Positions 1 to 24,032 of a DNA stretch of 60,671 nt are shown here, piece by piece (position 1 is the stretch's first letter; each line of letters begins with the position of its first letter). A program made the position numbers and the translations under genes. Location of the stretch: NCBI GenBank assembly GCA_002478275.1, contig DLMY01000054.1:1-60671 (forward strand). The letters run 5' to 3'. A model generated the notes under the pieces. That model saw only the letters and a program-made list of their open reading frames with translations, ran no database searches and was not told the origin of the DNA. The DNA comes from Actinobacteria bacterium UBA7524. GTDB taxonomy: Bacteria; Actinomycetota; Coriobacteriia; Anaerosomatales; UBA912.

Positions 1-21
1 ACCACTTGACGGGACATGGCC

Positions 22-69
22 TGCGTTCTAAGGCCCTGGAATCGAGCGGGTAGGGGTCTGGCTAGGGGC
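22..69 (+). repeat. 48-bp direct repeat, copy 1 (copy 2 at 2555-2602)
   Basis: tgcgttctaaggccctggaatcgagcgggtaggggtctggctaggggc aligns without gaps to 2555-2602 at 42/48 positions. Confidence 0.85.
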
Positions 70-191
70 CATCTTCCCACGGCCGCCCTCCGGGGCGGGT
101 GCTACGGAGAACCCGCTACACGCATCCAGGGCATGATGCAGACCACTTACTCAGGGCTAGCACCATCAGCCCACGGTCGCTGTGGCCGTTC

Positions 192-401
192 TCATCGTTG
201 CGCTGGTTGGTACTCGACATCCCGCCAAGACAGGCCACCGTCGGCGAGCTCGACTTGCTCCTGGATTCGTGTTGGATCGACCCGCTTCACCTCGGCCTGA
301 CTTGTCAGGAAGTTGAGGAGACGTCCTGCCATCGTGCGAGCATCGAGCGATTCGCTCACGCGGAGTGTCATGACGACGCGGATGGGTACGTCCGTGTTCA
401 T
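192..401 (-). CDS. small hypothetical protein
   Basis: 69-aa ORF with ATG and a GGAG RBS, directly downstream of the 410-658 ORF. Confidence 0.6.
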   Translation of the reverse strand: MNTDVPIRVVMTLRVSESLDARTMAGRLLNFLTSQAEVKRVDPTRIQEQVELADGGLSWRDVEYQPAQR

Positions 402-409
402 CGTGCCAG

Positions 410-658
410 CTACTCCCTTACGAGATAGGTCTCGCCGTCGCGCATTACGACGCGGACGTCGGAGAAACGTGGCTTGTTGTTGCGGAGTGCGGTCTTGAGT
501 CCGTCGTACACGGTCTTGGAGCCCTTGTCGTGCATCTTGACGATTACGGACTTCCGTCCGGAAGCGGTGAAGTCTTCGAGCATTTCGACGTATAGTCCTT
601 TGCGAGCCTTTCCCTCAGGTACGGGTGCATCGATGAATGCGTACGGCTTACTGACCAT
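410..658 (-). CDS. small basic hypothetical protein (possibly DNA-binding)
   Basis: 82-aa ORF with GAGG upstream and a natural-looking, Lys-rich composition. Confidence 0.65.
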   Translation of the reverse strand: MVSKPYAFIDAPVPEGKARKGLYVEMLEDFTASGRKSVIVKMHDKGSKTVYDGLKTALRNNKPRFSDVRVVMRDGETYLVRE

Positions 659-823
659 GTTGGCTCATACCTCACAATCGGGTAGTTGGTTTGTTGGTTA
701 CTGGTATACGCCGTCTATTGGTTATTGTCAACGGGTCGAGTTGCAGCCTTGTCTGCGGTACCATTCGGCACGCGTTTGGCATTTGAGGCAGAGCGCGCAG
801 GGGTGTTGCGTATACGGCTGAGG

Positions 824-909
824 TACTAGCAAGTGCCTCCAGCTGACGCGGCAAGCGTTAGACTGAACTACAAGGCTTCGGCGCACAGCTGAAGCACCGG
901 ACGTTAGGG
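824..909 (+). other. degenerate integron attC-like site 1
   Basis: tactagc ... gtgcctccagctgacgcg pairs with cgcacagctgaagcac ... gttaggg; left arm has an unpaired C and A, as in attC sites. Confidence 0.7.
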
Positions 910-925
910 GGAAGGTCGGGGCTCG

Positions 926-1597
926 ATGGCAGCAGCAACGCCACCGTTCATACATCATTCAGGTGACGCCAATGCTGTTCTCTTCTCTGGCAAGCGAGTT
1001 CCGTGGGCACTGGCAGTGCTGGTGTGGGTGGTAGCGATCGTTGCTCCTGTGGCCGCTTCCGTTCTCTGGATTGCACTTGGCCCCGCATGGATGCATCAGC
1101 CAAGCATCGGACCCGCAGAGGTCCTGATTGCCCTGGCTTCGGGGTCGCTTGTCGTCGTCCCGGTTCGACTAGGCTGGACTGGCAAGTGGCATGAGCGCCA
1201 ACACCAACGCGTAATCGAGGAGATAACGGGGGGCTCCGCGCTCGGGAGCTGGGGCAAGTGGCGCCGGACGATATGTGGAGGAGTGCGACTCAGGAAGCAC
1301 GGCGATTTCTGCACTCCGCTCCCCGACGACTGGATCAGAGGCGACCTCCACCGGGTCGTCGCGCTCGCGCCGCTTCTCCTTCACCTGCGATGGTGGGCGC
1401 CGATATGCTTGCTGGCTGTTCTCCCTATTCCGTACTACATCCTCGTGCTGGTGGCAGTGCTGCCCGCTGCGCTCTTGCTCCTTGGAGGCTGCCTCCAAGA
1501 TGTCGCTGAGGTGATCTGGCTGTGGCAGATGAGGTTCGAGACGACGGTCCCGTATGTGACGGCGGTTGGGCACCGGACCTACGTAGTCAAGATGTAG
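926..1597 (+). CDS. hypothetical membrane protein (cassette-like)
   Basis: 223-aa ORF with several hydrophobic segments, lying between attC-like sites 1 and 2. Confidence 0.65.
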   Translation: MAAATPPFIHHSGDANAVLFSGKRVPWALAVLVWVVAIVAPVAASVLWIALGPAWMHQPSIGPAEVLIALASGSLVVVPVRLGWTGKWHERQHQRVIEEITGGSALGSWGKWRRTICGGVRLRKHGDFCTPLPDDWIRGDLHRVVALAPLLLHLRWWAPICLLAVLPIPYYILVLVAVLPAALLLLGGCLQDVAEVIWLWQMRFETTVPYVTAVGHRTYVVKM

Positions 1598-1600
1598 CTC

Positions 1601-1702
1601 CGCTTGCGGAGATTTCGACCGCGACAGCCACGGCTCGTGAGGTAGTCTGAGATAGCAGCCATTCTGGGCCGCGGCTGCGGGTCAAACCTAAGAGCGTCAG
1701 CC
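1601..1702 (+). other. degenerate attC-like site 2
   Basis: agatttcgaccgcgacagccacggctc pairs with gggccgcggctgcgggtcaaacct with extra C/A bulges; ends in gtcagcc (cf. GTTAGCC). Confidence 0.65.
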
Positions 1703-1725
1703 GGACAGACTGAGGCGTGTGAATC

Positions 1726-2409
1726 GTGGCGCATGTGTACATCTACACCGACGGTGCTGCCAGTCCCAATCCGGGACCAGGCGGATATGGTGTCGTTCTG
1801 CTGTACGGTAAGCATCGCAAGGAACTCTCGTGCGGTTTCGTGCGCACGACAAACAACCGCATGGAACTGCTCGCCGTGATTACCGGACTCGAGTCGCTGA
1901 AGCGTGCGTGCCAGGTCACAATCTACAGCGACTCGCGGTACGTTTGTGATGCGGTCAACAAGAAGCGGCTAGACAAGTGGCAGCTGAACAGGTGGCGACT
2001 CTCGTCCGGTCACGACGTGAAGAACGTCGATCTGTGGAAGCGCTTCCTCGTGGCAAGTCAGCCACACGAGATACGGCTGTGCTGGATCAAGGGACACTCG
2101 GGTACGCCTGAAAACGAGCGCTGCGACGGACTGGCGACGCAAGCCTCGAGACAGCGGGACCGAAACGAGGACGACGGGTTCGTGGAGGATGCTGCTGGTC
2201 CCGGGAAGGCTTTCCACCCGAAGCAGCGAGTGGGAGACGAAGTCTGCCGCAAATGCGGTTCTCCAGTGGAGAGGTGCGTGCCGTCGAGGAAGCGCAAGCG
2301 GGGACAGACCTACTACTACGAGTGGTACTTGCGATGCACCGGGTGCAGAACGATGTACATGGTTGATGAGGCGAAGCGTGCAATCCCGGCTGATGGCACT
2401 GCCGGCTAG
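1726..2409 (+). CDS. rnhA: ribonuclease HI with C-terminal CxxC...CxxC zinc-finger extension
   Basis: YTDGA, NPGPGGYG, TTNNRMEL, SDSRY, KNVDLW and WIKGHSG-PENERCD motifs; C-terminal CRKC and CTGC. Confidence 0.93.
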   Translation: MAHVYIYTDGAASPNPGPGGYGVVLLYGKHRKELSCGFVRTTNNRMELLAVITGLESLKRACQVTIYSDSRYVCDAVNKKRLDKWQLNRWRLSSGHDVKNVDLWKRFLVASQPHEIRLCWIKGHSGTPENERCDGLATQASRQRDRNEDDGFVEDAAGPGKAFHPKQRVGDEVCRKCGSPVERCVPSRKRKRGQTYYYEWYLRCTGCRTMYMVDEAKRAIPADGTAG

Positions 2410-2509
2410 CAAGCGCCTCCTTAGTGTCACTCTGCCCTGTGGGCTGCCTGACGAGAGTCGGGTAGGCTCGAATCCGGCAGCGGAGCGATCCACCGCGCTT
2501 CTGTCACAC
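2404..2509 (+). other. degenerate attC-like site 3
   Basis: ggctagc-aagcgc overlaps the rnhA stop and pairs with gcgctt-ct-gtcacac; inner pairing is poor. Confidence 0.45.
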
Positions 2510-2554
2510 ATGGGCTGACCGTCCTCGACAGCGGCGAGAACCGACCGCTTGTGT

Positions 2555-2602
2555 TGCGTTCTAAGGCCCCGGAATCGACCGGGTAATGGTACGGCTAGGG
2601 GC
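2555..2602 (+). repeat. 48-bp direct repeat, copy 2
   Basis: tgcgttctaaggccccggaatcgaccgggtaatggtacggctaggggc, 42/48 identical to 22-69. Confidence 0.85.
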
Positions 2603-2648
2603 TAGAAACACCGTCTCTGAGCAGGACGGCTAAGGTTCGTTTAGAAAA

Positions 2649-2667
2649 GGGTATCACGGTGATACCC
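2649..2667. promoter_or_regulatory. perfect palindrome (candidate protein-binding site)
   Basis: gggtatcac-g-gtgataccc, 9-bp arms, just downstream of the relaxase gene. Confidence 0.5.
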
Positions 2668-2697
2668 CCCTGTTTGCGGAGGCCCTTCGCAGGCTGC

Positions 2698-4236
2698 TCA
2701 CCTCTCGCGATCCGGTCGGCCCACGTTCGGCTCCGCCCCGGCCCAGATACCCCGGTACCGCTCCAGTGCGCGCTTTCGTCGGGCGACGATACCGCGATCT
2801 GTCACTCGCTGATTCGCGAGCGCGTGATCGAGGTCGCGGAAGACCTGAGCCGCTAGGTAGGCCGCAGCCGACAGCCCTGCCATGACGGGCGCCGCTCGCT
2901 CCCCACCGGTGGCGCGCTCGAGAGCCGTCACGTCTTCATTGCGCAGATGACCGCTCTCAGCTCCGCGGCTCCACGAGACATCGATCTCCTCCGAGAGGTC
3001 GCGCCCGCCGAGAGCAACTGCGGTGGCCTCCCTCCCCACACCCGCGGCACCGCATGCCCGCGCCGCCCGGATGCGGTCGCGCTCGAAGCACGCCGGGTCG
3101 AGCCCGCGAGACGTCAGGACGGGCACCGCCCGCCAGGCCCGCTCCCTCAGGTGGTGTTGCTCCAGTTCCGCCGCTGCGTGGAGCACGCTCTGGCCGATGC
3201 GATGCTCGAGGTCCTCGGCTGCAGCCGCACGCGCGTCGGACAGAAGCGGGGCCTGGCTCGTCTGGTACCTCGCCATCTGCTCGGCGAGGGCGACGTACCG
3301 ATCCGCCGCGGCCCGATTCGTCGACTCACCCAGGAGCTGGCTCACCACTTCGGTGACAGCCGTCTTCGTCTCGGGGGGCATGTAGCCGAGAGCAAGCCGG
3401 CCGTGGCCCGGCAGTGTGGCAGCCACTCGCTCAAGCCCCGTTGCCAGCGCCTCCAGATGCTGAGGCGATGGGACCGGCGTGGCGGCCGGCCGCCTGAGGT
3501 CGACCGGAGACGCACCAGGCGCCCAGTCCATGAGCTCGCTCACGACTTGCAGCTCGGTGCGCGTGCTCGCCACCAACGCATCCCGGATGGCACCCTTCTC
3601 CGCGCCGAGGTCGGCACAGACGGGTCGCCACAGCTCCCGGGTCAGCGTCTCCCGAAGACCTGTGAGAGCGTCGGCGGCGATCGTGTCGTGGCCGCGTTTC
3701 CTGTCCGCCGAATCCCATGCGATCACATGCAGATGCGGGTGCCCCTCGGACGGATGAAGAGCGGCGACCCACCGCAGCCGGTCGACGGGGATCCCGAGTC
3801 CGTGAGCCAGGGTCGGCGTCTGCTCGCACATGAAGTGCTCCCAGGAGTCCTTGTCCACAAGCCCCACCGCAGCCGCCGTCTCCTCGCGGACCGAGAGGAT
3901 GATGCGGTACGCGGGTGAGTTCTCGAGCGCGTTCAACTCCCTGCGGACGGTCATCGGATCCGCCACACCCAACCTATCGAAGAGTCCGTGCAGCTGCAGA
4001 CCGTCTGGGGTCTCACGCGCCACCCCCGGACGTTCCGAGATGTACGCCAGGTACGCATCGTCGGCGGAGACATCGCGGTGCTGCGCCCGGAGCAGTGACG
4101 CCTCGGTCACCGTCGTGTCGACGCCCGGCCGGGTGCCGATGTACTTGAGGTGCGCCGCGTTACCGGATTGCACGCGTGCCGCGTCCGGACTCTTGAAACT
4201 GAGCTTGACTACCAGGTTGCTGGACGACATGCGCAC
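2698..4236 (-). CDS. MobP3/MobL-like HUH relaxase
   Basis: N-terminal LVVKLSF...HLKYIGTRPGV, YISERPG, HGLF, IILSVRE and H-x4-HPHLHV relaxase motifs. Confidence 0.85.
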   Translation of the reverse strand: MRMSSSNLVVKLSFKSPDAARVQSGNAAHLKYIGTRPGVDTTVTEASLLRAQHRDVSADDAYLAYISERPGVARETPDGLQLHGLFDRLGVADPMTVRRELNALENSPAYRIILSVREETAAAVGLVDKDSWEHFMCEQTPTLAHGLGIPVDRLRWVAALHPSEGHPHLHVIAWDSADRKRGHDTIAADALTGLRETLTRELWRPVCADLGAEKGAIRDALVASTRTELQVVSELMDWAPGASPVDLRRPAATPVPSPQHLEALATGLERVAATLPGHGRLALGYMPPETKTAVTEVVSQLLGESTNRAAADRYVALAEQMARYQTSQAPLLSDARAAAAEDLEHRIGQSVLHAAAELEQHHLRERAWRAVPVLTSRGLDPACFERDRIRAARACGAAGVGREATAVALGGRDLSEEIDVSWSRGAESGHLRNEDVTALERATGGERAAPVMAGLSAAAYLAAQVFRDLDHALANQRVTDRGIVARRKRALERYRGIWAGAEPNVGRPDRER

Positions 4237-4242
4237 CCTCCC

Positions 4243-4686
4243 TCATTCGGCCGAGGACGTGGTGTCATCCGGGTCGTCCTCGGGGGACGACCCGATCGTC
4301 TGGCGCGCGAATGACACGGCCCTCCCGCGACAGGTGTCGTAGAACCGCTGGGCCTCGGCCGTGCTGAAGTCGCACTGCTGCACGAGCACCTCGAGGCTGA
4401 GGAACGTGGCAGTCGCTGACGCGATCACTCCCTTCGCGATGAGAGAGCGAACCGCCGCCGCGAGACGCTCCGAAGCGTCTCGCGTTGCGGCGAAGACCAT
4501 CTGCTCGAGCGTCCCGCGCTGGGCCTCGTAGGCGTCGGATGTCAGGCAGAATTCCACGTACTCGTGCGCCAGGGTTGTAGGCGGCACGCCACGCGCCGCA
4601 GCCACCTTCGCAAGAAGCTCGTAGGTCTGCTCATCAAGCCGCAACGCCACTCGCTTACCGCCTGCACTTGTCGTTGTCACAGTCAT
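4243..4686 (-). CDS. MobC-like relaxosome accessory protein (ribbon-helix-helix)
   Basis: KRVALRLDEQTYELLAKVAAARGV RHH-like N-terminus; directly upstream of the relaxase; start reassigned to ATG at 4686. Confidence 0.65.
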   Translation of the reverse strand: MTVTTTSAGGKRVALRLDEQTYELLAKVAAARGVPPTTLAHEYVEFCLTSDAYEAQRGTLEQMVFAATRDASERLAAAVRSLIAKGVIASATATFLSLEVLVQQCDFSTAEAQRFYDTCRGRAVSFARQTIGSSPEDDPDDTTSSAE

Positions 4687-4699
4687 CACCACTTCCGAA

Positions 4700-4860
4700 T
4701 TCGTGCTTGTCTGGGATGGCAACCACCGCGCACCGTGTGGTTGCCAGATGAAACCGCCAGCTGCGGCGGGATTTCCCCTGCTCACCGGCACCGCCGGGGA
4801 TGCGTAGCCCTCCGCCTGTTGCGCTCGTGGCAACAGGCCTTATCCTGCCTTCGTTTCAGA
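4700..4860. other. candidate oriT region
   Basis: inverted repeats tggcaaccac/gtggttgcca (4717-4746) and gcctgttgc/gcaacaggc (about 4815-4838) upstream of mobC-relaxase. Confidence 0.5.
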
Positions 4861-4974
4861 ACTGACGGTCCTCCGCCGCGTCGTAGCTCTCAGACGGGGA
4901 CGCCCGTTCTCCCGTCCCCTTACCGGCATCCGTTAGACTGAGACCCGGTTGTGCTCAGCTACCGAGGGGGACAC

Positions 4975-7900
4975 GTGCGAGATCCGGTAGAGCTCTACTT
5001 CACTACGCTGCGGGACATCCACGCCTCCGGTGCGGGTGTCGCCGAGACGAGCTACTACCCGGCGCTCCAGGCGCTCCTCACGTCGATCGGTGCGGGCCTC
5101 AAGCCCAAGGTCACCGCGATCATCAACCTTCGGAACACCGGCGCCGGCATCCCCGACGGTGGTCTGTTCACCGCCCCGCAGCTCAAGGGCTGGGAGCCGG
5201 GCGCTGACACGCTCTTCGGACAGATCCCGGGGCGTGGTGCCATTGAGGTGAAGGGCACTGCTGACGATGCGCTGGCCACCGCCGAAGGCGAGCAGGTGAC
5301 CCGATACGTGGAGCGCTACGGACTAGTGCTCGTCACCAACCTCCGCGACTTCGTGCTCGTGGGCCGCAGCGCCGACGGCACTGGCACCCGGATCCTCGAG
5401 TCGCTGCGCCTGGCCACCACCGAGGCCGGCTTCTGGGCACGCGTGCAGCAGCCACGGAAGTATGCCGAGGACGCGAGCGAGGGCCTCACCGAGTTCCTCC
5501 AGCGCGTGCTGCTCCACAATGCGCCGCTTTCCGACCCGAAGGACCTCGCGTGGTTCCTTGCGAGCTACGCGCGCACCGCGAGGTTGCGCCTCGAACAGAA
5601 GCACGAGCTCCCCGCACTCGACGCGCTCCGCTCGCAGCTGGAAGACGCGCTCGGGCTCAAGTTCGAAGGTGAAAAGGGCGATCACTTCTTCCGCTCCACC
5701 CTCGTGCAGACCCTCTTCTACGGCATGTTCGCCGCCTGGGTACTCTGGGCTCGCGGACGCGACCGGTCCGAAGAGATCCCGTGGGAGAGCCGTTTCCAGT
5801 GGGAGACGGCCACCGCCACACTTCATGTCCCGATGGTCTATGAGCTCTTCCGCCAGTTCGCCGACGTACGTCAGCTCGGACAGCTCGGCATCTCCGAGGT
5901 GCTCGAGTGGGCCGAAGAGGTGCTCTGGCGCGTGCAGCGCGGCCCATTCTTCGACAAGTTCGAGGAGCATCACGCGGTGCAGTACTTCTACGAGCCGTTC
6001 CTCGAGGCGTTCGACCCGCAGCTCCGCAAGGAGCTCGGCGTGTGGTACACGCCGGACGAGGTCGTGAAGTACATGGTGGCACGCGTCGACTGGGCGCTCC
6101 GCGAGGAGCTCGGCATCGCTGACGGACTCGCCGACCCCAGCGTGGTTGTCCTGGATCCGTGCTGCGGCACCGGCGCGTACCTCGTCGAAGTGCTGCGCAA
6201 GATTGACGAGACACTCACCGCCAAGGGCGCGGATGCCCTCACGCGAAACGATGTAAAGCGCGCGGCGATGGAGCGCGTGATCGGCTTCGAGATCATGCCG
6301 GCACCGTTCGTGGTGGCGCACCTACAGATGGGAATCCTACTGGCCGAACTCGACGTGCCGCTAAAGGATGCTGACGAGCGAGCTGCTATCTACCTCACCA
6401 ACGCGCTCACCGGCTGGGGTGATGGCTCCATCCAGCCGCCGAAGGACAAGCGCGCCGTTGCGGGCCAGATGCACTCGACGCTGCTGTTCCCGGAGTTCGC
6501 CGAGGAGCGTGACGCTGCCGACCGCGTCAAGCGCGAGGAGAAGATCCTCGTGGTGATCGGCAATCCGCCGTACAACGGATACGCGGGCGTTGCACAGGAC
6601 GAGGAGGCGGAGCTGGTTGCGCCGTACAAGGCCGGTCTTGTCGAGTGGGGCGTCACAAAGAACTACCTTGACGACTTGTACGTGAGATTCATGCGTCTCG
6701 CGGAGAAGACGGTGGCTCGGAGCGGTGTGGGAGTCGTCTGCTACATCAGCAACTTCTCCTGGCTGTCCGATCCATCCGCCGTGCTAATGCGACAGTCACT
6801 GCTGGAGAGCTTTGACTCAATCGTCCTTGACTCGTTGAACGGTGATAGCAGGGAAACAGGCAAGCGGGCACCCGACGGTAGTCCGGACCCCAGCATCTTC
6901 TCCGGCCCGTCAAACACCCAGGGCATCCAGGTCGGTACCGCGATCACAACGATGATTGCCGGCGCCAGGTCCCCAGATGGCCCTCTACACAGGGACCTCT
7001 GGGGAGTCACTAAGCGAAGCCAGTTGCTCGATGAGGCCACCAGATTGCCGGACCTGCGCGAATACGCCTCCCTGGAGCCCGATGTAGGTAATCGCTACGC
7101 GCTTCGCCCGTTTACAAGCGCACCGGGATACAGCACATGGCCTTCGCTTCCAGATCTTGCAGAGACCCCACCCAGCCTCGGGCTGAACGAGAACCGCGCG
7201 GGCGCGCTGGTCGACACCGACCGTGACGCATTGCTCGAGAGGATGAGGGCATACCTGGATGCAACCATCGATGCATCCTCGCTGCCAGACACTCTGGCAG
7301 GGCTCAGGCGGCCGTGGGCGCGTTTCGACCCGGCCGACACAAGGAAGCGTCTGCTCGAGGTCGGTCTGGACGAGTCGCGCATCATCCCCTTCATGGCGAA
7401 GCCGTTTGATGTGCAGTGGGCGTACGCCGAACCGCGATTCAAGCTGTGGAATGAATCGCGCGGGCGCCTGCTGGCGCGGACGCCTCCGGGCGCGCGCTTC
7501 ATCCTGGCACGTGCTCGAGCGCCGCGTGCGCTTGACGGCGCTCCGGTGACGGTGTTCTCCGGCATCGCAGACCAACACGCGTTGCACAAGGACGCGTATC
7601 TGTTTCCACTCGAACTGAGTTCACCGAGTGAGTCTCTCTTGACGGAGGACTCTGGTGCGCCGAACCTCTCAACGTCTGCGCACGCGTACGTGAACGCGTG
7701 CAGCATGAAGGCTGAAGCCGCGTCACACGTCTGGACTCACGTTGTCGCGATCTCATACTCTCCTGCCTACCAGACTGAGAATGCGGATGCCATTCGATCA
7801 GACTGGCCTCGAATACCGATGCCTGCTGACGCGGATGTACTCGCCAAGTCTGCGGCGCTGGGAGAACGAATCATGCTCCTTCTCGACGTGTCGCCGTTGA

Positions 7901-8415
7901 GCAGCGGTACGGCCCCCCTGCCAGGATTCGCATACGGTGCGTTGTCGTCGGCAGCTGGAACCCTCGACCCAAGGGATGACCTGGGCCTCACAGCGCAATG
8001 GGGCATCGCCGGCAAGGGTGGCATCACGATGCCGTCGACCGGCAAGCTTGAGGAGCGTCCGTACACCGACGACGAGCGCCAGACGATCGCGGAGCACACG
8101 GCCACACTCGGCATGTCGGGCGTGCAGGCGATTGAGCTCCTCGGCGAGACGTGCTTCGACGTCTACCTCAACGACAAGGCGTACTGGCGCTGCGTGCCCT
8201 CGGCGGTGTGGCGCTATACGATCGGCGGCTACCAGGTAACCAAGAAGTGGCTGTCCTACCGCGAGCGAGCGCTGCTCGGCCGCGACCTCAAGCCCGAGGA
8301 GGCGCGCTATGTCACCGAGATGGTGCGCCGTATCGCCGAGCTCGTGCTGATGCAGCCCGAGCTCGACGCCAACTACAAGCGCGTGAAGGCCGACGTGTGG
8401 GAGTGGCCCGGCTAG
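4975..8415 (+). CDS. single-chain type IIG / type ISP-like restriction-modification enzyme (nuclease-N6 MTase-TRD)
   Basis: N-terminal PD...EVK nuclease motif, YTPDEVV, LDPCCGTG (motif I), GNPPY (motif IV), C-terminal WRYTIGGYQVxKKWL; GTG start after a GAGGGGG RBS. Confidence 0.9.
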   Translation: MRDPVELYFTTLRDIHASGAGVAETSYYPALQALLTSIGAGLKPKVTAIINLRNTGAGIPDGGLFTAPQLKGWEPGADTLFGQIPGRGAIEVKGTADDALATAEGEQVTRYVERYGLVLVTNLRDFVLVGRSADGTGTRILESLRLATTEAGFWARVQQPRKYAEDASEGLTEFLQRVLLHNAPLSDPKDLAWFLASYARTARLRLEQKHELPALDALRSQLEDALGLKFEGEKGDHFFRSTLVQTLFYGMFAAWVLWARGRDRSEEIPWESRFQWETATATLHVPMVYELFRQFADVRQLGQLGISEVLEWAEEVLWRVQRGPFFDKFEEHHAVQYFYEPFLEAFDPQLRKELGVWYTPDEVVKYMVARVDWALREELGIADGLADPSVVVLDPCCGTGAYLVEVLRKIDETLTAKGADALTRNDVKRAAMERVIGFEIMPAPFVVAHLQMGILLAELDVPLKDADERAAIYLTNALTGWGDGSIQPPKDKRAVAGQMHSTLLFPEFAEERDAADRVKREEKILVVIGNPPYNGYAGVAQDEEAELVAPYKAGLVEWGVTKNYLDDLYVRFMRLAEKTVARSGVGVVCYISNFSWLSDPSAVLMRQSLLESFDSIVLDSLNGDSRETGKRAPDGSPDPSIFSGPSNTQGIQVGTAITTMIAGARSPDGPLHRDLWGVTKRSQLLDEATRLPDLREYASLEPDVGNRYALRPFTSAPGYSTWPSLPDLAETPPSLGLNENRAGALVDTDRDALLERMRAYLDATIDASSLPDTLAGLRRPWARFDPADTRKRLLEVGLDESRIIPFMAKPFDVQWAYAEPRFKLWNESRGRLLARTPPGARFILARARAPRALDGAPVTVFSGIADQHALHKDAYLFPLELSSPSESLLTEDSGAPNLSTSAHAYVNACSMKAEAASHVWTHVVAISYSPAYQTENADAIRSDWPRIPMPADADVLAKSAALGERIMLLLDVSPLSSGTAPLPGFAYGALSSAAGTLDPRDDLGLTAQWGIAGKGGITMPSTGKLEERPYTDDERQTIAEHTATLGMSGVQAIELLGETCFDVYLNDKAYWRCVPSAVWRYTIGGYQVTKKWLSYRERALLGRDLKPEEARYVTEMVRRIAELVLMQPELDANYKRVKADVWEWPG

Positions 8416-8479
8416 TCCTGCTGAGCATGTCAGCACTGACAGGTAGGTTGGGCGAGAGTCTCGATACGAAAGGAGCGAC

Positions 8480-8887
8480 ATGTTCGTGTTGTATGAGGGC
8501 TCAGTCAAGGGCGATTACCAGGGCAAGACCGTGCTGGATCTGCTCGGCAATGTCGATGCAAACAGAAAAGGTGAGAGATTCAGCGAGCACGGGTTCGAAG
8601 GCGGCACAATCTGGCTGTACGACAGCGAAGAGTGGGCGGATCTTGTTGACTACTTCTTCAACGATGATACTGACGGCCAGCCGGAGGAGGAGCGTATTCG
8701 TGACGCGGAGTCATGGCTGGCAAGGACGGGCATGCCTCGCCGAATTTCATCCAATCAGTTGATCGTGAACATGCGCGGCACCGATGAACACTACCGGACC
8801 TTCAGCCATGAGATCGGCCACGAGGAAATCAACAACATGCTGAAGACTGCCTTTCCTGACTACGGCTATCGAGTCGTCGAGGAGTAG
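8480..8887 (+). CDS. acidic hypothetical protein
   Basis: 135-aa ORF with an AAGGAG RBS. Confidence 0.75.
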   Translation: MFVLYEGSVKGDYQGKTVLDLLGNVDANRKGERFSEHGFEGGTIWLYDSEEWADLVDYFFNDDTDGQPEEERIRDAESWLARTGMPRRISSNQLIVNMRGTDEHYRTFSHEIGHEEINNMLKTAFPDYGYRVVEE

Positions 8888-8892
8888 TCGGC

Positions 8893-8959
8893 ACGCAACT
8901 GCGATTGGTCAGCCGCGACTACTCGAGGCAGGCTCGCCGAGGCCAAACCGCTGTTGCGC
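8893..8959 (+). other. possible attC-like site 4
   Basis: acgcaac ... gttgcgc termini with imperfect inner arms, immediately after the 8887 stop. Confidence 0.35.
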
Positions 8960-8987
8960 GGGGGCGGGTCCTCAAGATGGGGGCACG

Positions 8988-20539: not shown

Positions 20540-20556
20540 CCTCCGACCCCTTCCCT

Positions 20557-20657
20557 GTGCGACAGCGCGTCAGCATTCCAGCTGAGGCGCCGCCCGACCT
20601 TCCCTGCCCGAGTCTACCGCACCCGGGTGCGTCTTCTGCTCGACGCTCAGGTTGGGC
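20557..20657 (-). other. degenerate attC-like site 5
   Basis: minus strand begins GCCCAAC (perfect RYYYAAC) just after the ATPase stop, has imperfect arms and ends gtcgcac. Confidence 0.5.
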
Positions 20658-20671
20658 ACTCAGGAGCCACG

Positions 20672-22960
20672 TCAGCCGATCACCTTCAGGGCCTTCTTGG
20701 CGTACAGCTCCGTACTCGTCGCGTTCAGAACCTCATCCCCGGGAGCATGTGTTGAACCGTGGTGGCGGTGGTTCGTCGCTTTCGCGATTACCTTGATGTC
20801 GGATAGGCTGGGCTTCATGCACGCCAAGGATGCTGCCGGGTCCGCAGACTCAATTCGCTCGGCCATGGAGCCAAGCCAGTCCTCTGCGCCGAACTCACCT
20901 GGGAAGCGCTGGCGGAGGTAGTCCTCCAGGAACGGTCGCAGACTCCGCGAGGCAACCTCCCAACTCACAGCTTCGCCAGCCACGTAATCCGCAATAGTGA
21001 AGTAGTTGCGGAAGTAGTCCGTGGCGAGGTCACGATCCATTGTGTCCCACTCTCGGACGCAGCTCGTCGTACCCTCACGACGAATGCATAGCACCTTGCG
21101 TACGTCACTGGCGGTAGCGCGATAAAGCATATGGGCAAGTCTGGGCTCGTGTGTGAGGACCACAACCTGCGACAGGCTGTTCATCATGGAGACAAGCGTG
21201 TCCGCGATGAGCAGTCTGCGCTCCTGATCGAGACTGTTCACCGGATCATCGACCACAACAACAACGTCAGCGAGATCCGCCCGATTCTTGACGTGGGCCA
21301 TAAAGAGGGCCAGCGCGAACAGGTTCTTCTCGCCATCACTCAATGTGTTGCCGAAACAAGGCACGTCCTTCACAACAGCCGGCTTGCCGAGAGGGACACT
21401 GATGCCACCAACGCTTATCGAGTAGTCCACACTCGGCGGCTTCGTCTGGTGGTTCGCTCGCGGGTTCTCGATTCTGATTGCCGAGCCGAAGTGCTTGAGG
21501 TAGGTATTCATGTCATCGCGGTATCGGGCCAACAGAGATTCGATACCCTGATTCATCTGCTGCCTTGCGGCCTGCCCATCAGCCGTGATCTTGGCCTTCT
21601 TGGCGGTGAGCTCAGAGAACTCGACGCAGAGCGAGGAGACTGCACCCTCATACCTCTGCTTCTGATTATGAAGCTGGTCAATCTGCCTCTGCAGCCCCAC
21701 CAGGTCGGCGCTTTGAACGGCGGCAACGAAATCAGTGATTTCGTTAGAGGCGGCGCCGAGTTGAGCTTCCGCCCGCTGCACAACCCCCAGAGACTCCTTG
21801 AGCAATCGGAGGTGCTCCTCTATCGGCGCGAAGTCGACCGCACGGAGTGGGTCACCCTTCTTCATCTCAATCGCCGTCCGAATGGCAGCACATGAGTTCA
21901 CCGCTAACTCGATGGACGGCGCCAAGTCGGTCGACAGCGCAGGGACGTCGATCTTGGGCACCTGCCCCTCCCACGTTCTCGCGACATCGCGTTGCCGCAG
22001 CACTCGCTCCGCATCCCGCTCGAGAGTAGTCGGGTCATATTGCTCAAGAAGAGCCCCGAGGTCAGCGTTCAAGCTCCGCTCGTAGTCTTCATACGCTGCA
22101 CTGAAGTACTGCCGAAGAGCCGCGTAGAGTTCCGAGTCATCGAGCGACTGGTCACAGAAGGGACACCTGGCTTCGTCCACGTACTTCATACCCTCGCGCA
22201 ACCAAGAGCCCCCAGCTCCTGCCATCCTCTGTTGTCTGTGCGCTGCCACCCGTGCAATCGCCTCGACCGAGATGGAATCGATTGAACGCGCCATGACACT
22301 GCGTAGTGGACCCTCATCCGGGCTCAGAAGGTGCACGCGGGTCGGAAGCGGCTTTGATGCAATAGCTGCGATATCCCGCGCAGCGGCGAACTTCCGCTTG
22401 GCCTCATCAAGAAGGGCGTCAACGTCCTCAAGGGGCTGCAGGCCAACGAAATCGCCAACGCTTGAGGTGCCACGAATGTGCGACCTGATGCCGGCCTCCA
22501 CATCACGTAGGCGCGCGTTCACGTCGTTGAGCTCCTGCCGAAGCTCCTCGAGGCGTTGGCCCTCAGCAACTGCAGTGCGGCCGATGAGCAGGGAGCATAG
22601 GCCCTTCTGTTGGTCGTTGGAAACGTGATCACCTGAGTAGACGACTCGGGAGACGAAGTCGCTGCAGAAGACTTCCAGCTCCGGACATGTGGAGTCCCAC
22701 TCGCCATGACTGAATGTGTGCATACCAGCCGAGGACAGTATGCGTACTGTCGGCTCGCCGCTGGCGCCGAGGGTCTTCCTGCCTAGGATGGTGCCTGCAG
22801 TCCCTTCTCTCAGGGAGTCGAGAACTGCGGCGAGAGTCGTCTTTCCGATGGCATTATCGCCATAGACGATGGTCAGCTTCTTGAACGTCTGGTCTCCAAC
22901 GGCCGCATGCTGCCTCAGCTTGCCAACGTTGGAGATCTCAACGACCTTCTCAATCATCAC
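20672..22960 (-). CDS. AAA_13/RloC-like SMC-type ATPase with zinc hook
   Basis: YGDNAIGKTT Walker A, CPFC hook in coiled coil, LSDGEK signature, VVVDDPVNSLD Walker B, LTH, C-terminal NHRHH. Confidence 0.85.
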   Translation of the reverse strand: MMIEKVVEISNVGKLRQHAAVGDQTFKKLTIVYGDNAIGKTTLAAVLDSLREGTAGTILGRKTLGASGEPTVRILSSAGMHTFSHGEWDSTCPELEVFCSDFVSRVVYSGDHVSNDQQKGLCSLLIGRTAVAEGQRLEELRQELNDVNARLRDVEAGIRSHIRGTSSVGDFVGLQPLEDVDALLDEAKRKFAAARDIAAIASKPLPTRVHLLSPDEGPLRSVMARSIDSISVEAIARVAAHRQQRMAGAGGSWLREGMKYVDEARCPFCDQSLDDSELYAALRQYFSAAYEDYERSLNADLGALLEQYDPTTLERDAERVLRQRDVARTWEGQVPKIDVPALSTDLAPSIELAVNSCAAIRTAIEMKKGDPLRAVDFAPIEEHLRLLKESLGVVQRAEAQLGAASNEITDFVAAVQSADLVGLQRQIDQLHNQKQRYEGAVSSLCVEFSELTAKKAKITADGQAARQQMNQGIESLLARYRDDMNTYLKHFGSAIRIENPRANHQTKPPSVDYSISVGGISVPLGKPAVVKDVPCFGNTLSDGEKNLFALALFMAHVKNRADLADVVVVVDDPVNSLDQERRLLIADTLVSMMNSLSQVVVLTHEPRLAHMLYRATASDVRKVLCIRREGTTSCVREWDTMDRDLATDYFRNYFTIADYVAGEAVSWEVASRSLRPFLEDYLRQRFPGEFGAEDWLGSMAERIESADPAASLACMKPSLSDIKVIAKATNHRHHGSTHAPGDEVLNATSTELYAKKALKVIG

Positions 22961-22991
22961 CGAACCCCCCGGATCACACCCGCGGTGACTA

Positions 22992-23091
22992 ATGTGACGC
23001 CTCGGCGCTTCAGCAGCGGCGTGCCAGCGAGCGCTTACCAGCCGAGTCTAACGTATGAGGCGCGCCGTCTGTGTGGAAGCGCGGGCTAGAC
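22992..23091 (-). other. degenerate attC-like site 6
   Basis: minus strand gtctagc-ccgcgcttccacacagacggcgcgcc pairs with ggcacgccgctgctgaagcgc-cgaggc-gtcacat, with extra C and A. Confidence 0.7.
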
Positions 23092-23105
23092 ACACCCGGT
23101 GCTGC

Positions 23106-23869: not shown

Positions 23870-23878
23870 TCTAGAATC

Positions 23879-23936
23879 TGGTGCCCCCAAGGGAATTCGA
23901 ATCCCGATAGTGCTTGTGACTATTGGGACTCGTTGG
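23879..23936 (-). mobile_element. att-like site: tRNA(Glu)-like 3' fragment plus element end, copy 1
   Basis: reverse complement GGGATTCGAATTCCCTTGGGGGCACCA (T-loop, acceptor strand, CCA); 56/58 identical to 60614-60671. Confidence 0.88.
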
Positions 23937-24032
23937 GACTCGTTGGTACAGCGGAGCTGCGGCGAGTCCCAATAGGTACCAACGAGTACCAACAGTCACC
24001 ATGTATTTGGGCAACAAATCGGGCAACAAATC
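23916..24032. repeat. element-end repeats (candidate integrase arm / Xis binding sites)
   Basis: tandem ttgggact/ttggtac units inverted against gagtcccaa/gtaccaac units, then gggcaacaaatc twice. Confidence 0.7.

Follow-up and report, generated by a model that had tools for sequence, protein, structure and literature searches.

Does a short block near the start of a contig from Actinobacteria bacterium UBA7524 (GenBank assembly GCA_002478275.1, contig DLMY01000054.1) represent integron cassettes that have become separated from an integron integrase (IntI)? The window, defined here as the whole stretch of 60,671 nucleotides (nt) that was analyzed, is contig C34, one of 60 contigs in a genome (G000) of 1.81 Mb that is 83% complete. 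An earlier note, made from the sequence alone, had read positions 824-2509 as an array of three attC recombination sites that alternate with a membrane-protein gene and the ribonuclease gene rnhA, lack an integrase and were captured by a mobilisable element. Our analysis supports, with a probability of about 0.8, the reading that positions 824-2523 are the decaying remnant of an integrase-less cassette cluster of the type known as CALIN (cluster of attC sites lacking integron integrases). The layout would comprise attC1, cassette 1 with an orphan membrane-protein gene, attC2, cassette 2 with a gene for RNase HI, and the first 17 nt of attC3.

In order to recognize attC sites in this lineage, a covariance model (R1) was built from 19 attC sites located on other G000 contigs, with the window excluded. 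The core sites of attC follow the consensus RYYYAAC (R'') and GTTRRRY (R'), which agrees with the alignment of the 19 sites. All 19 align in the attC pattern, in which a two-part stem and a variable loop stand between CTAAC and GTTAG ends, and none of them departs from T at the third base of R'. According to RNAalifold, the alignment forms 21 pairs, of which 14 show compensatory changes, together with a bulged C at column 28 and a bulged A at column 35. R1 was run over the window with filters off (121 kb searched), yielding the four best matches listed in Table 1 and 19 more at E 1.6-9 that were taken as noise. Across the whole genome R1 gave 23 matches at E<=0.001, of which 20 were on other contigs, and an iterated nhmmer search gave 23 attC sites at E<0.01. 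Most of the G000 sites are held by contigs C42, C58, C27, C28, C31, C4, C20 and C38, and several contigs break within an attC; these attC-rich contigs look like fragments of at least one long array whose integrase end is missing from the assembly. The order Anaerosomatales was sampled with 41 genomes for IntI (TIGR02249, curated cut-off 265 bits) and with 121 genomes for DNA and protein matches, G000 being counted in both. R1 is a true attC model, as it finds arrays of 8 to 53 sites right beside IntI genes in these relatives. In genome G016 the IntI gene (900018-900962, minus strand) adjoins an unbroken minus-strand run of R1 matches at 860009-899602, with 53 matches in the genome, and in G022 the IntI gene (1726649-1727590, plus strand) adjoins plus-strand matches at 1728593-1734685.

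The three intergenic elements of the window all lie on the plus strand and bracket the open reading frame (ORF) at 926-1597 and rnhA at 1726-2409. The position, shared orientation and bracketing described earlier are therefore as claimed, while the third of the supposed hairpins is an attC stub followed by the truncated end of an insertion sequence (IS). Likewise, the attC architecture holds for site 1 and, with GTC for GTT, for site 2, but does not extend to site 3, where R1 returned no match over 2400-2520 at E<=10. As judged from its sequence, site 1 is a true attC-family site. It keeps GTT in R', has AGC for AAC in R'' and contains two broken pairs; blastn against its own genome aligns it at 72-75% identity with elements of C42, C58 (two copies) and C27, and the identity to sites in relatives reaches 86-87%. 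The crossover triplet of site 2 is GTC, versus GTT in 19 of 19 reference sites. A GTC triplet abolishes recombination in class 1 systems. The unpaired C and A on the left arm, which the earlier note had pointed out for both sites, were seen in the R1 alignment, with one extra G inserted in site 2. The note had also foreseen its own failure if no attC score was obtained even with repaired R boxes and if homologous genes were never followed by attC sites; this did not come about, as sites 1 and 2 score unrepaired and the homologue of rnhA in genome G113 (39% identity) sits between R1 matches of 88.8 and 20.9 bits.

Folding energy by itself does not set the window sites apart, and the signal comes from homology. 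For the exact spans, fold z-scores on the top and bottom strands were -1.87 and 0.09 for site 1, -0.01 and -1.18 for site 2, and 0.18 and -0.15 for site 3; the median for the 19 reference sites was -2.35. Among windows of 131-141 nt only the plus strand of site 1 stood out (z -2.08), and 6 of 200 shuffles folded equally well. Window sequences that fold no better than shuffles would suit chance hairpins, terminators or a repeat of the repetitive extragenic palindromic type unrelated to integrons, as would the lack of Rfam matches, with none in the window at the gathering score and four sub-threshold matches in 1-3000 attributable to chance. Such an origin is nevertheless highly improbable, since R1 finds arrays next to IntI, the pairs of the stem covary, and homology to a related metagenome record breaks exactly at the R' box.

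This record was found through the direct repeat that flanks the block. A search with the repeat gave three metagenome records, two of which share the window structure at >99% identity. The third, L166 (4299-6490), matches window 21-907 at 95.5% identity, both small genes to the left of attC1 included, and its homology to the window ends directly after GTTAG, at position 907. The attC1 of L166 has the canonical form: it keeps CTAAC, all its pairs are intact and it scores 77.1 bits with R1. GTTAG is followed there by an ORF of the arginase family (PF00491, 5.1e-21), another attC that scores 38.9 bits and, on the opposite strand, an IS110-family transposase. Because a different cassette follows GTTAG in L166, cassettes appear to have been exchanged at the attC1 of the window, and a break at the R' box is the pattern expected of IntI-mediated exchange. 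Furthermore, since the L166 form matches the family consensus, the decay of attC1 was probably on the window side, where the broken pairs and the change from AAC to AGC are found. No integrase was found in the 3.5 kb to the left in L166, and a 311-aa ORF left of its repeat, considered as an integrase, was rejected as it belongs to no Pfam family.

The same comparison bears on whether the cluster still works. The genome's own IntI, unassembled, could continue to excise and insert cassettes at attC1 and attC2, making the locus an active satellite array. Consistent with this, attC1 keeps GTTAG and scores 61.3 bits, two of the 19 reference sites have the same CTAGC in R'', L166 shows that turnover has occurred at this exact site, and IntI is common in the order, where attC clusters may lie far from it (563866-573258 in G016 and 383429-387354 in G022). 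Continuing activity is nonetheless unlikely, given GTC in attC2, an attC3 without its 3' half, two broken pairs in attC1 that L166 does not have and a bottom-strand z near zero for that site. In addition, runs of several studies differ from the window at 2 positions in 4.5 kb and no turnover is visible among them. With the sites degraded to this extent, the two cassette genes are most likely now fixed and their mobility lost.

The third site records a different kind of damage. By blastn the site 3 region is 76% identical over 126 nt to C31, where an IS110-family element (5660-6953; PF02371, 1.7e-17, frameshifted) lies within an attC, both halves of which flank it. Window 2405-2523 matches 27 of the 121 genomes of the order, and none of the matches extends past 2524. 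Among 11 relatives' loci that were followed downstream, the seven that could be tested all carry an IS110 transposase 72-81% identical to that of C31, starting 140-250 nt after the match; the other four loci end within about 120 nt of it. The element is joined to attC at one point in 13 of 13 copies, after GCGC[A/C/T]TCC of the L'' arm, and begins with TTAGTGTCAC, so that the junction GCGC[A/C/T]TCC/TTAG is common to all 13. The non-coding region of the IS, a stretch of about 245 nt that lies upstream of the transposase gene (tnp), contains CGCGCTTC-TGTCAC, which equals the target flank plus the IS end, and it is this motif that made site 3 resemble a hairpin. The box GTCACAC (2503-2509), formerly taken as the R' of site 3, lies within the IS end. 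The guide-like part corresponding to the target flank tracks the target in three copies (C31, L071 and L065) and has mismatches in four (the window, L067, L068 and L070). No DEDD transposase (PF01548 plus PF02371) was found in the window after 2523, the next gene being that of the relaxase, which begins with its 3' end, and when the window was searched for the lost 3' half of attC3, 31 matches were obtained versus 33.5 expected by chance. Judged by these homologies, window 2421-2523 is a fragment of an IS110-family element and not a full member.

IS elements that home to attC have a counterpart in the IS1111-attC group, reportedly described by Tetu and Holmes in 2008 and by Post and Hall in 2009. 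The element found here resembles that group in its DEDD transposase and in its fixed point and orientation within attC in all copies, and its non-coding motif of target flank and IS end is as expected for a seekRNA or bridge RNA. It differs in that the window copy is a 103-nt stump. According to Siddiquee et al. (2024, PMC11187229), the IS1111 members ISKpn4 and ISPst6 target attC by means of an RNA from the non-coding region, which follows tnp in IS1111 and precedes it in IS110; on this description the long region upstream of tnp in the present element is the IS110 arrangement, unlike that of the IS1111-attC group.

The integrase itself was sought in the window, in the genome and in the order. 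As the earlier note had it, the window holds no integron integrase; the sole tyrosine recombinase seen in it is of another type, at 24 bits for TIGR02249. No protein of G000 exceeded the cut-off either, the best being an Xer-like protein of about 300 aa at 81.5 bits. By contrast, IntI above the cut-off was present in 28 of the 41 sampled genomes, including both genomes of genus g2 in the same family. Since the G000 assembly is 83% complete and many of the relatives' IntI genes lie at contig ends, this is weak evidence that the organism lacks IntI; with 20 further R1 matches elsewhere in the genome, integrase-less is a description that fits the locus and probably the locus only. A search of the host genome, as had been proposed, thus produced attC sites and no IntI. 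The closest IntI relatives in the collection of genome contigs searched are 60-74% identical, under titles that name metagenome-assembled genomes (MAGs) of Actinomycetes, Actinobacteria, Coriobacteriia and Thermoleophilia, beside Desulfuromonas and others.

The rarity of integrons in Actinomycetota, which the earlier note had taken as established, agrees with complete-genome surveys, which recovered no complete integron from Actinobacteria (Cury et al. 2016, PMC4889954; Néron 2022 preprint). It does not hold in this uncultured order, in which sites of the attC family, arrays that contain 8 to 53 of them and IntI genes are all common. A literature search of limited coverage found no paper on integrons in this class. 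In both G016 and G022, IntI and attC share one orientation, with the array after the 3' end of intI. This arrangement corresponds to the inverted integrase group of Cury et al. (2016, PMC4889954), which includes chromosomal integrons of the Treponema group; unlike these, the present locus has neither IntI nor attI, and the titles of the relatives are Actinomycetota MAGs and not spirochaetes.

Sites 1 and 2 are 787 nt apart and no intI lies within 4 kb. Under the operational definition of CALIN, which requires two or more attC sites within 4 kb of each other and the absence of intI over that distance, the locus is such a cluster, as had been proposed, and is not a complete integron. Compared with CALIN as defined by IntegronFinder (Cury et al. 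2016, PMC4889954), it shares the co-oriented attC sites, each just 3' of an ORF, the non-resistance and largely unknown cargo, and the presence of IS elements. It differs in its actinobacterial host, in sites that are partly decayed, one being disrupted by an IS, and in its detection with a lineage-specific model instead of the published one. Of the CALIN origins discussed in that paper, cassettes at secondary sites and arrays split by rearrangement are the closest, as the cassettes here lie away from an integron platform with IS and integrative elements around them.

Several observations weigh against a decaying CALIN. Site 2 is weak, with an nhmmer E of 5.3 and a fold no better than shuffles, and R1 is a lineage-specific model whose E-values are rough. 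Neither IntI nor attI was found in G000, and action in trans is an assumption. Furthermore, no attC was found near the homologues of the 82-aa flanking protein in nine relatives, nor on C29, the contig to the left, and nothing upstream of attC1 is cassette-like.

Taken together, the proposed course of events is as follows. An IntI encoded elsewhere would have inserted and swapped cassettes by recombining the folded bottom strands of attC between the G and the TT of the crossover triplet, a placement that derives from the comparison with L166. attC1 would then have degraded by loss of two base pairs and of AAC in R'', and attC2 by the change to GTC. An attC-targeting IS110-family element would have struck attC3 at the L'' arm, and the IS would later have been truncated along with the 3' half of that site. 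Such a history suggests that cassettes are not confined to the main array and can also lie among mobile elements, that they can be exchanged at attC with no integrase in cis, and that clusters may die by point decay of R boxes together with homing of IS to attC sites.

The cargo is an RNase HI and an orphan membrane protein and not drug resistance. For the membrane protein, the 120 other genomes sampled from the order yielded no relative, and atlas look-ups of this protein and of the 82-aa flanking protein gave scores <0.9 and no family. Type-1 RNase H was found in 3 of the 121 genomes; given this rarity, the cassette copy is regarded as an accessory gain and not as a duplicated housekeeping gene. 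In G076 the homologue is on a 1.8-kb locus with no attC. Outside the order, the fusion of RNase H with the C-terminal tail is common at about 50% identity, and two proteins reach 86-90%.

A -10-like motif, GnTAnnnT, occurs in the attC loops of the window at 855-862 and 1641-1648. Across three genomes, 43 of 70 attC sites have it on the top strand of their loop and 13 of 70 have it on the bottom strand, with shuffles giving a mean of 11.6 and a maximum of 18. The motif may serve as a promoter for the next cassette, and the two genes in the window would probably be transcribed from the loop of the attC that precedes each of them.

Table 1. Features of the window in and around the cassette block, with matches to covariance model R1.
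Feature	Position	Strand	Details
Outward end of multicopy IS	1-21		Same 21-mer at ends of C7, C8, C44 and C55; contig breaks here
Direct-repeat copy 1, right part	22-69	+	Left part on C29:9653-9680; 67-70 nt in full
ORF, 69 aa	192-401	-	No Pfam or NCBIfam family; conserved in L166
ORF, 82 aa	410-658	-	Co-transcribed with the 69-aa ORF
Site 1, R1 match	813-922	+	61.3 bits, E 1.7e-12
attC1	824-909	+	86 nt; R'' TACTAGC 824-830, R' GTTAGGG 903-909; bulged C and A
Cassette 1 gene	926-1597	+	Orphan 223-aa protein with about four hydrophobic segments
Site 2, R1 match	1590-1715	+	23.8 bits, E 0.001
attC2	about 1597-1702	+	Decayed; R' GTCAGCC 1696-1702, degenerate R''
Cassette 2 gene, RNase HI	1726-2409	+	PF00075 2.7e-40; NF001236 188.6 bits (cut-off 160); C-terminal CxxC...CxxC tail
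attC3 stub	2404-2420	+	R'' GGCTAGC overlapping the rnhA stop codon, then first 10 nt of L''; no R'
Truncated IS110-family left end	2421-2523	+	Transposase gene missing
Direct-repeat copy 2	2536-2602	+	85-88% identical to copy 1
MobP3-family relaxase	2698-4236	-	NF041499 171.9 bits (cut-off 150); PF18555 weak; 3' end faces the block
Tyrosine integrase, phage or integrative and conjugative element (ICE) type	14171-15397	+	PF00589 5.7e-22; TIGR02249 24.2 bits, not IntI
Decayed attC, R1 match	20546-20667	-	17.6 bits, E 0.029
AAA_13 ATPase gene	20672-22960	-	Pfam; between the decayed attC matches at 22983-23097 and 20546-20667
Decayed attC, R1 match	22983-23097	-	31.5 bits, E 1.6e-5

The surroundings of the block are rich in mobile elements. 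The window begins with an IS end; an initial reading of this position as an att site was dropped in its favour. In three runs (X5, X7 and X3) the sequence that precedes position 21 is the terminus of contig C29, from which it follows that the IS at the window start is particular to this assembly and that C29 is the true left neighbour. C29 and C34 were joined across one IS copy with a target duplication of 9-10 bp, and this copy is missing from other samples. Many contigs (C7, C8, C44, C55, C29, C6 and C38) end in one member of a pair of related 21-mers, apparently the two terminal repeats of one multicopy IS. C29 carries a RiPP-like cluster (ribosomally synthesized and post-translationally modified peptide), a serine resolvase and fic-vbhA. 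Between the left flank and attC1, the promoter region of the 82-aa and 69-aa genes (659-812) holds a short direct repeat at 689-703 and 713-727. Homologues of the 82-aa protein were found in 10 of the 121 genomes, G000 included.

The locus is not a misassembly, as its junctions recur in independent assemblies. Among the 23 runs listed (19 of which, from 12 studies, hold part of window 1-3000), 12 hold half of its words or more. One contig of 5972 nt, from an independent soil run, covers window 21-4500 and departs from it at 2 positions, and a sludge contig (1869-4500) and a groundwater contig (1409-4479) show no differences; the source sample may be among the four runs compared.

On the right, a putative integrative mobilisable element with a MobP3 relaxase and a tyrosine integrase would occupy 2603 to about 15400; no oriT was identified in it. 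Beyond the relaxase Pfam and NCBIfam identify a type ISP-like methyltransferase, a DnaB-like helicase, the tyrosine integrase and the defence genes GmrSD and AAA_13. This context raises the alternative that the block is cargo of a mobile unit, either as part of the MobP3 element or as a non-autonomous module bounded by the repeat and moved in trans. A 67-70-nt direct repeat brackets the 2.5-kb block, the end of the relaxase gene is 96 nt away, and the flanks carry Fic/VbhA, the serine resolvase, the relaxase and the integrase. Moreover, the same 4.5 kb recurs in soil, sludge and groundwater runs, and C54 has a second integrase-MobP3 region with one canonical attC. On the other side, no third copy of the repeat was found beyond the integrase, in 120 relatives or in the collection of genome contigs searched. 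No relative of the relaxase element with defined ends was found: a DNA search with window 1-16200 matched nothing of its backbone and was limited to hits in the methyltransferase gene, the IS end and attC1, and relaxase homologues are 36-39% identical and, with the exception of C54, have no attC nearby. L166 keeps repeat copy 1 and attC1 with no relaxase in the 2.1 kb that follow. Transport as cargo stays rather doubtful, at about one chance in four. Capture by a mobilisable element, as the earlier note had it, was thus not borne out: the block abuts the relaxase gene and is set off by the direct repeat, and nothing places it inside the element. A joint left by deletion between the repeats was absent from the contigs of four runs, although contigs drop rare forms.

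The C54 region (C54:1-16000, L160) has its attC at 8732-8842 (81 bits), between genes for a 447-aa integrase and for the second MobP3 relaxase.

A broader and decidedly speculative extension is that the unit formed by the repeat, the two small genes and attC1 acts as an integrase-free docking site for cassettes, on or with a mobilisable island. It would trade cassettes in trans with host integrons, carry them between Actinomycetota and have them transcribed from attC loops. If so, the -10 elements of attC loops would account for the expression of arrays whose integrase is inverted.

Farther into the window, every gene between about 15.5 and 23.6 kb lies on the minus strand. The two decayed attC matches in this part have the R' boxes GTCACAT (22983-23097) and GTCGCAC (20546-20667), and the interval 20546-23097 may be a second fossil array. 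A tRNA scan of the window reported no genes; at about 23870-24020 on the minus strand there is a tRNA 3' fragment that ends in CCA and contains repeated arm-like motifs. The recurrence of this fragment at the 3' end of the contig suggests that 24.0-60.7 kb is a separate integrated island, with P-type ATPases, an MFS transporter and ChrB.

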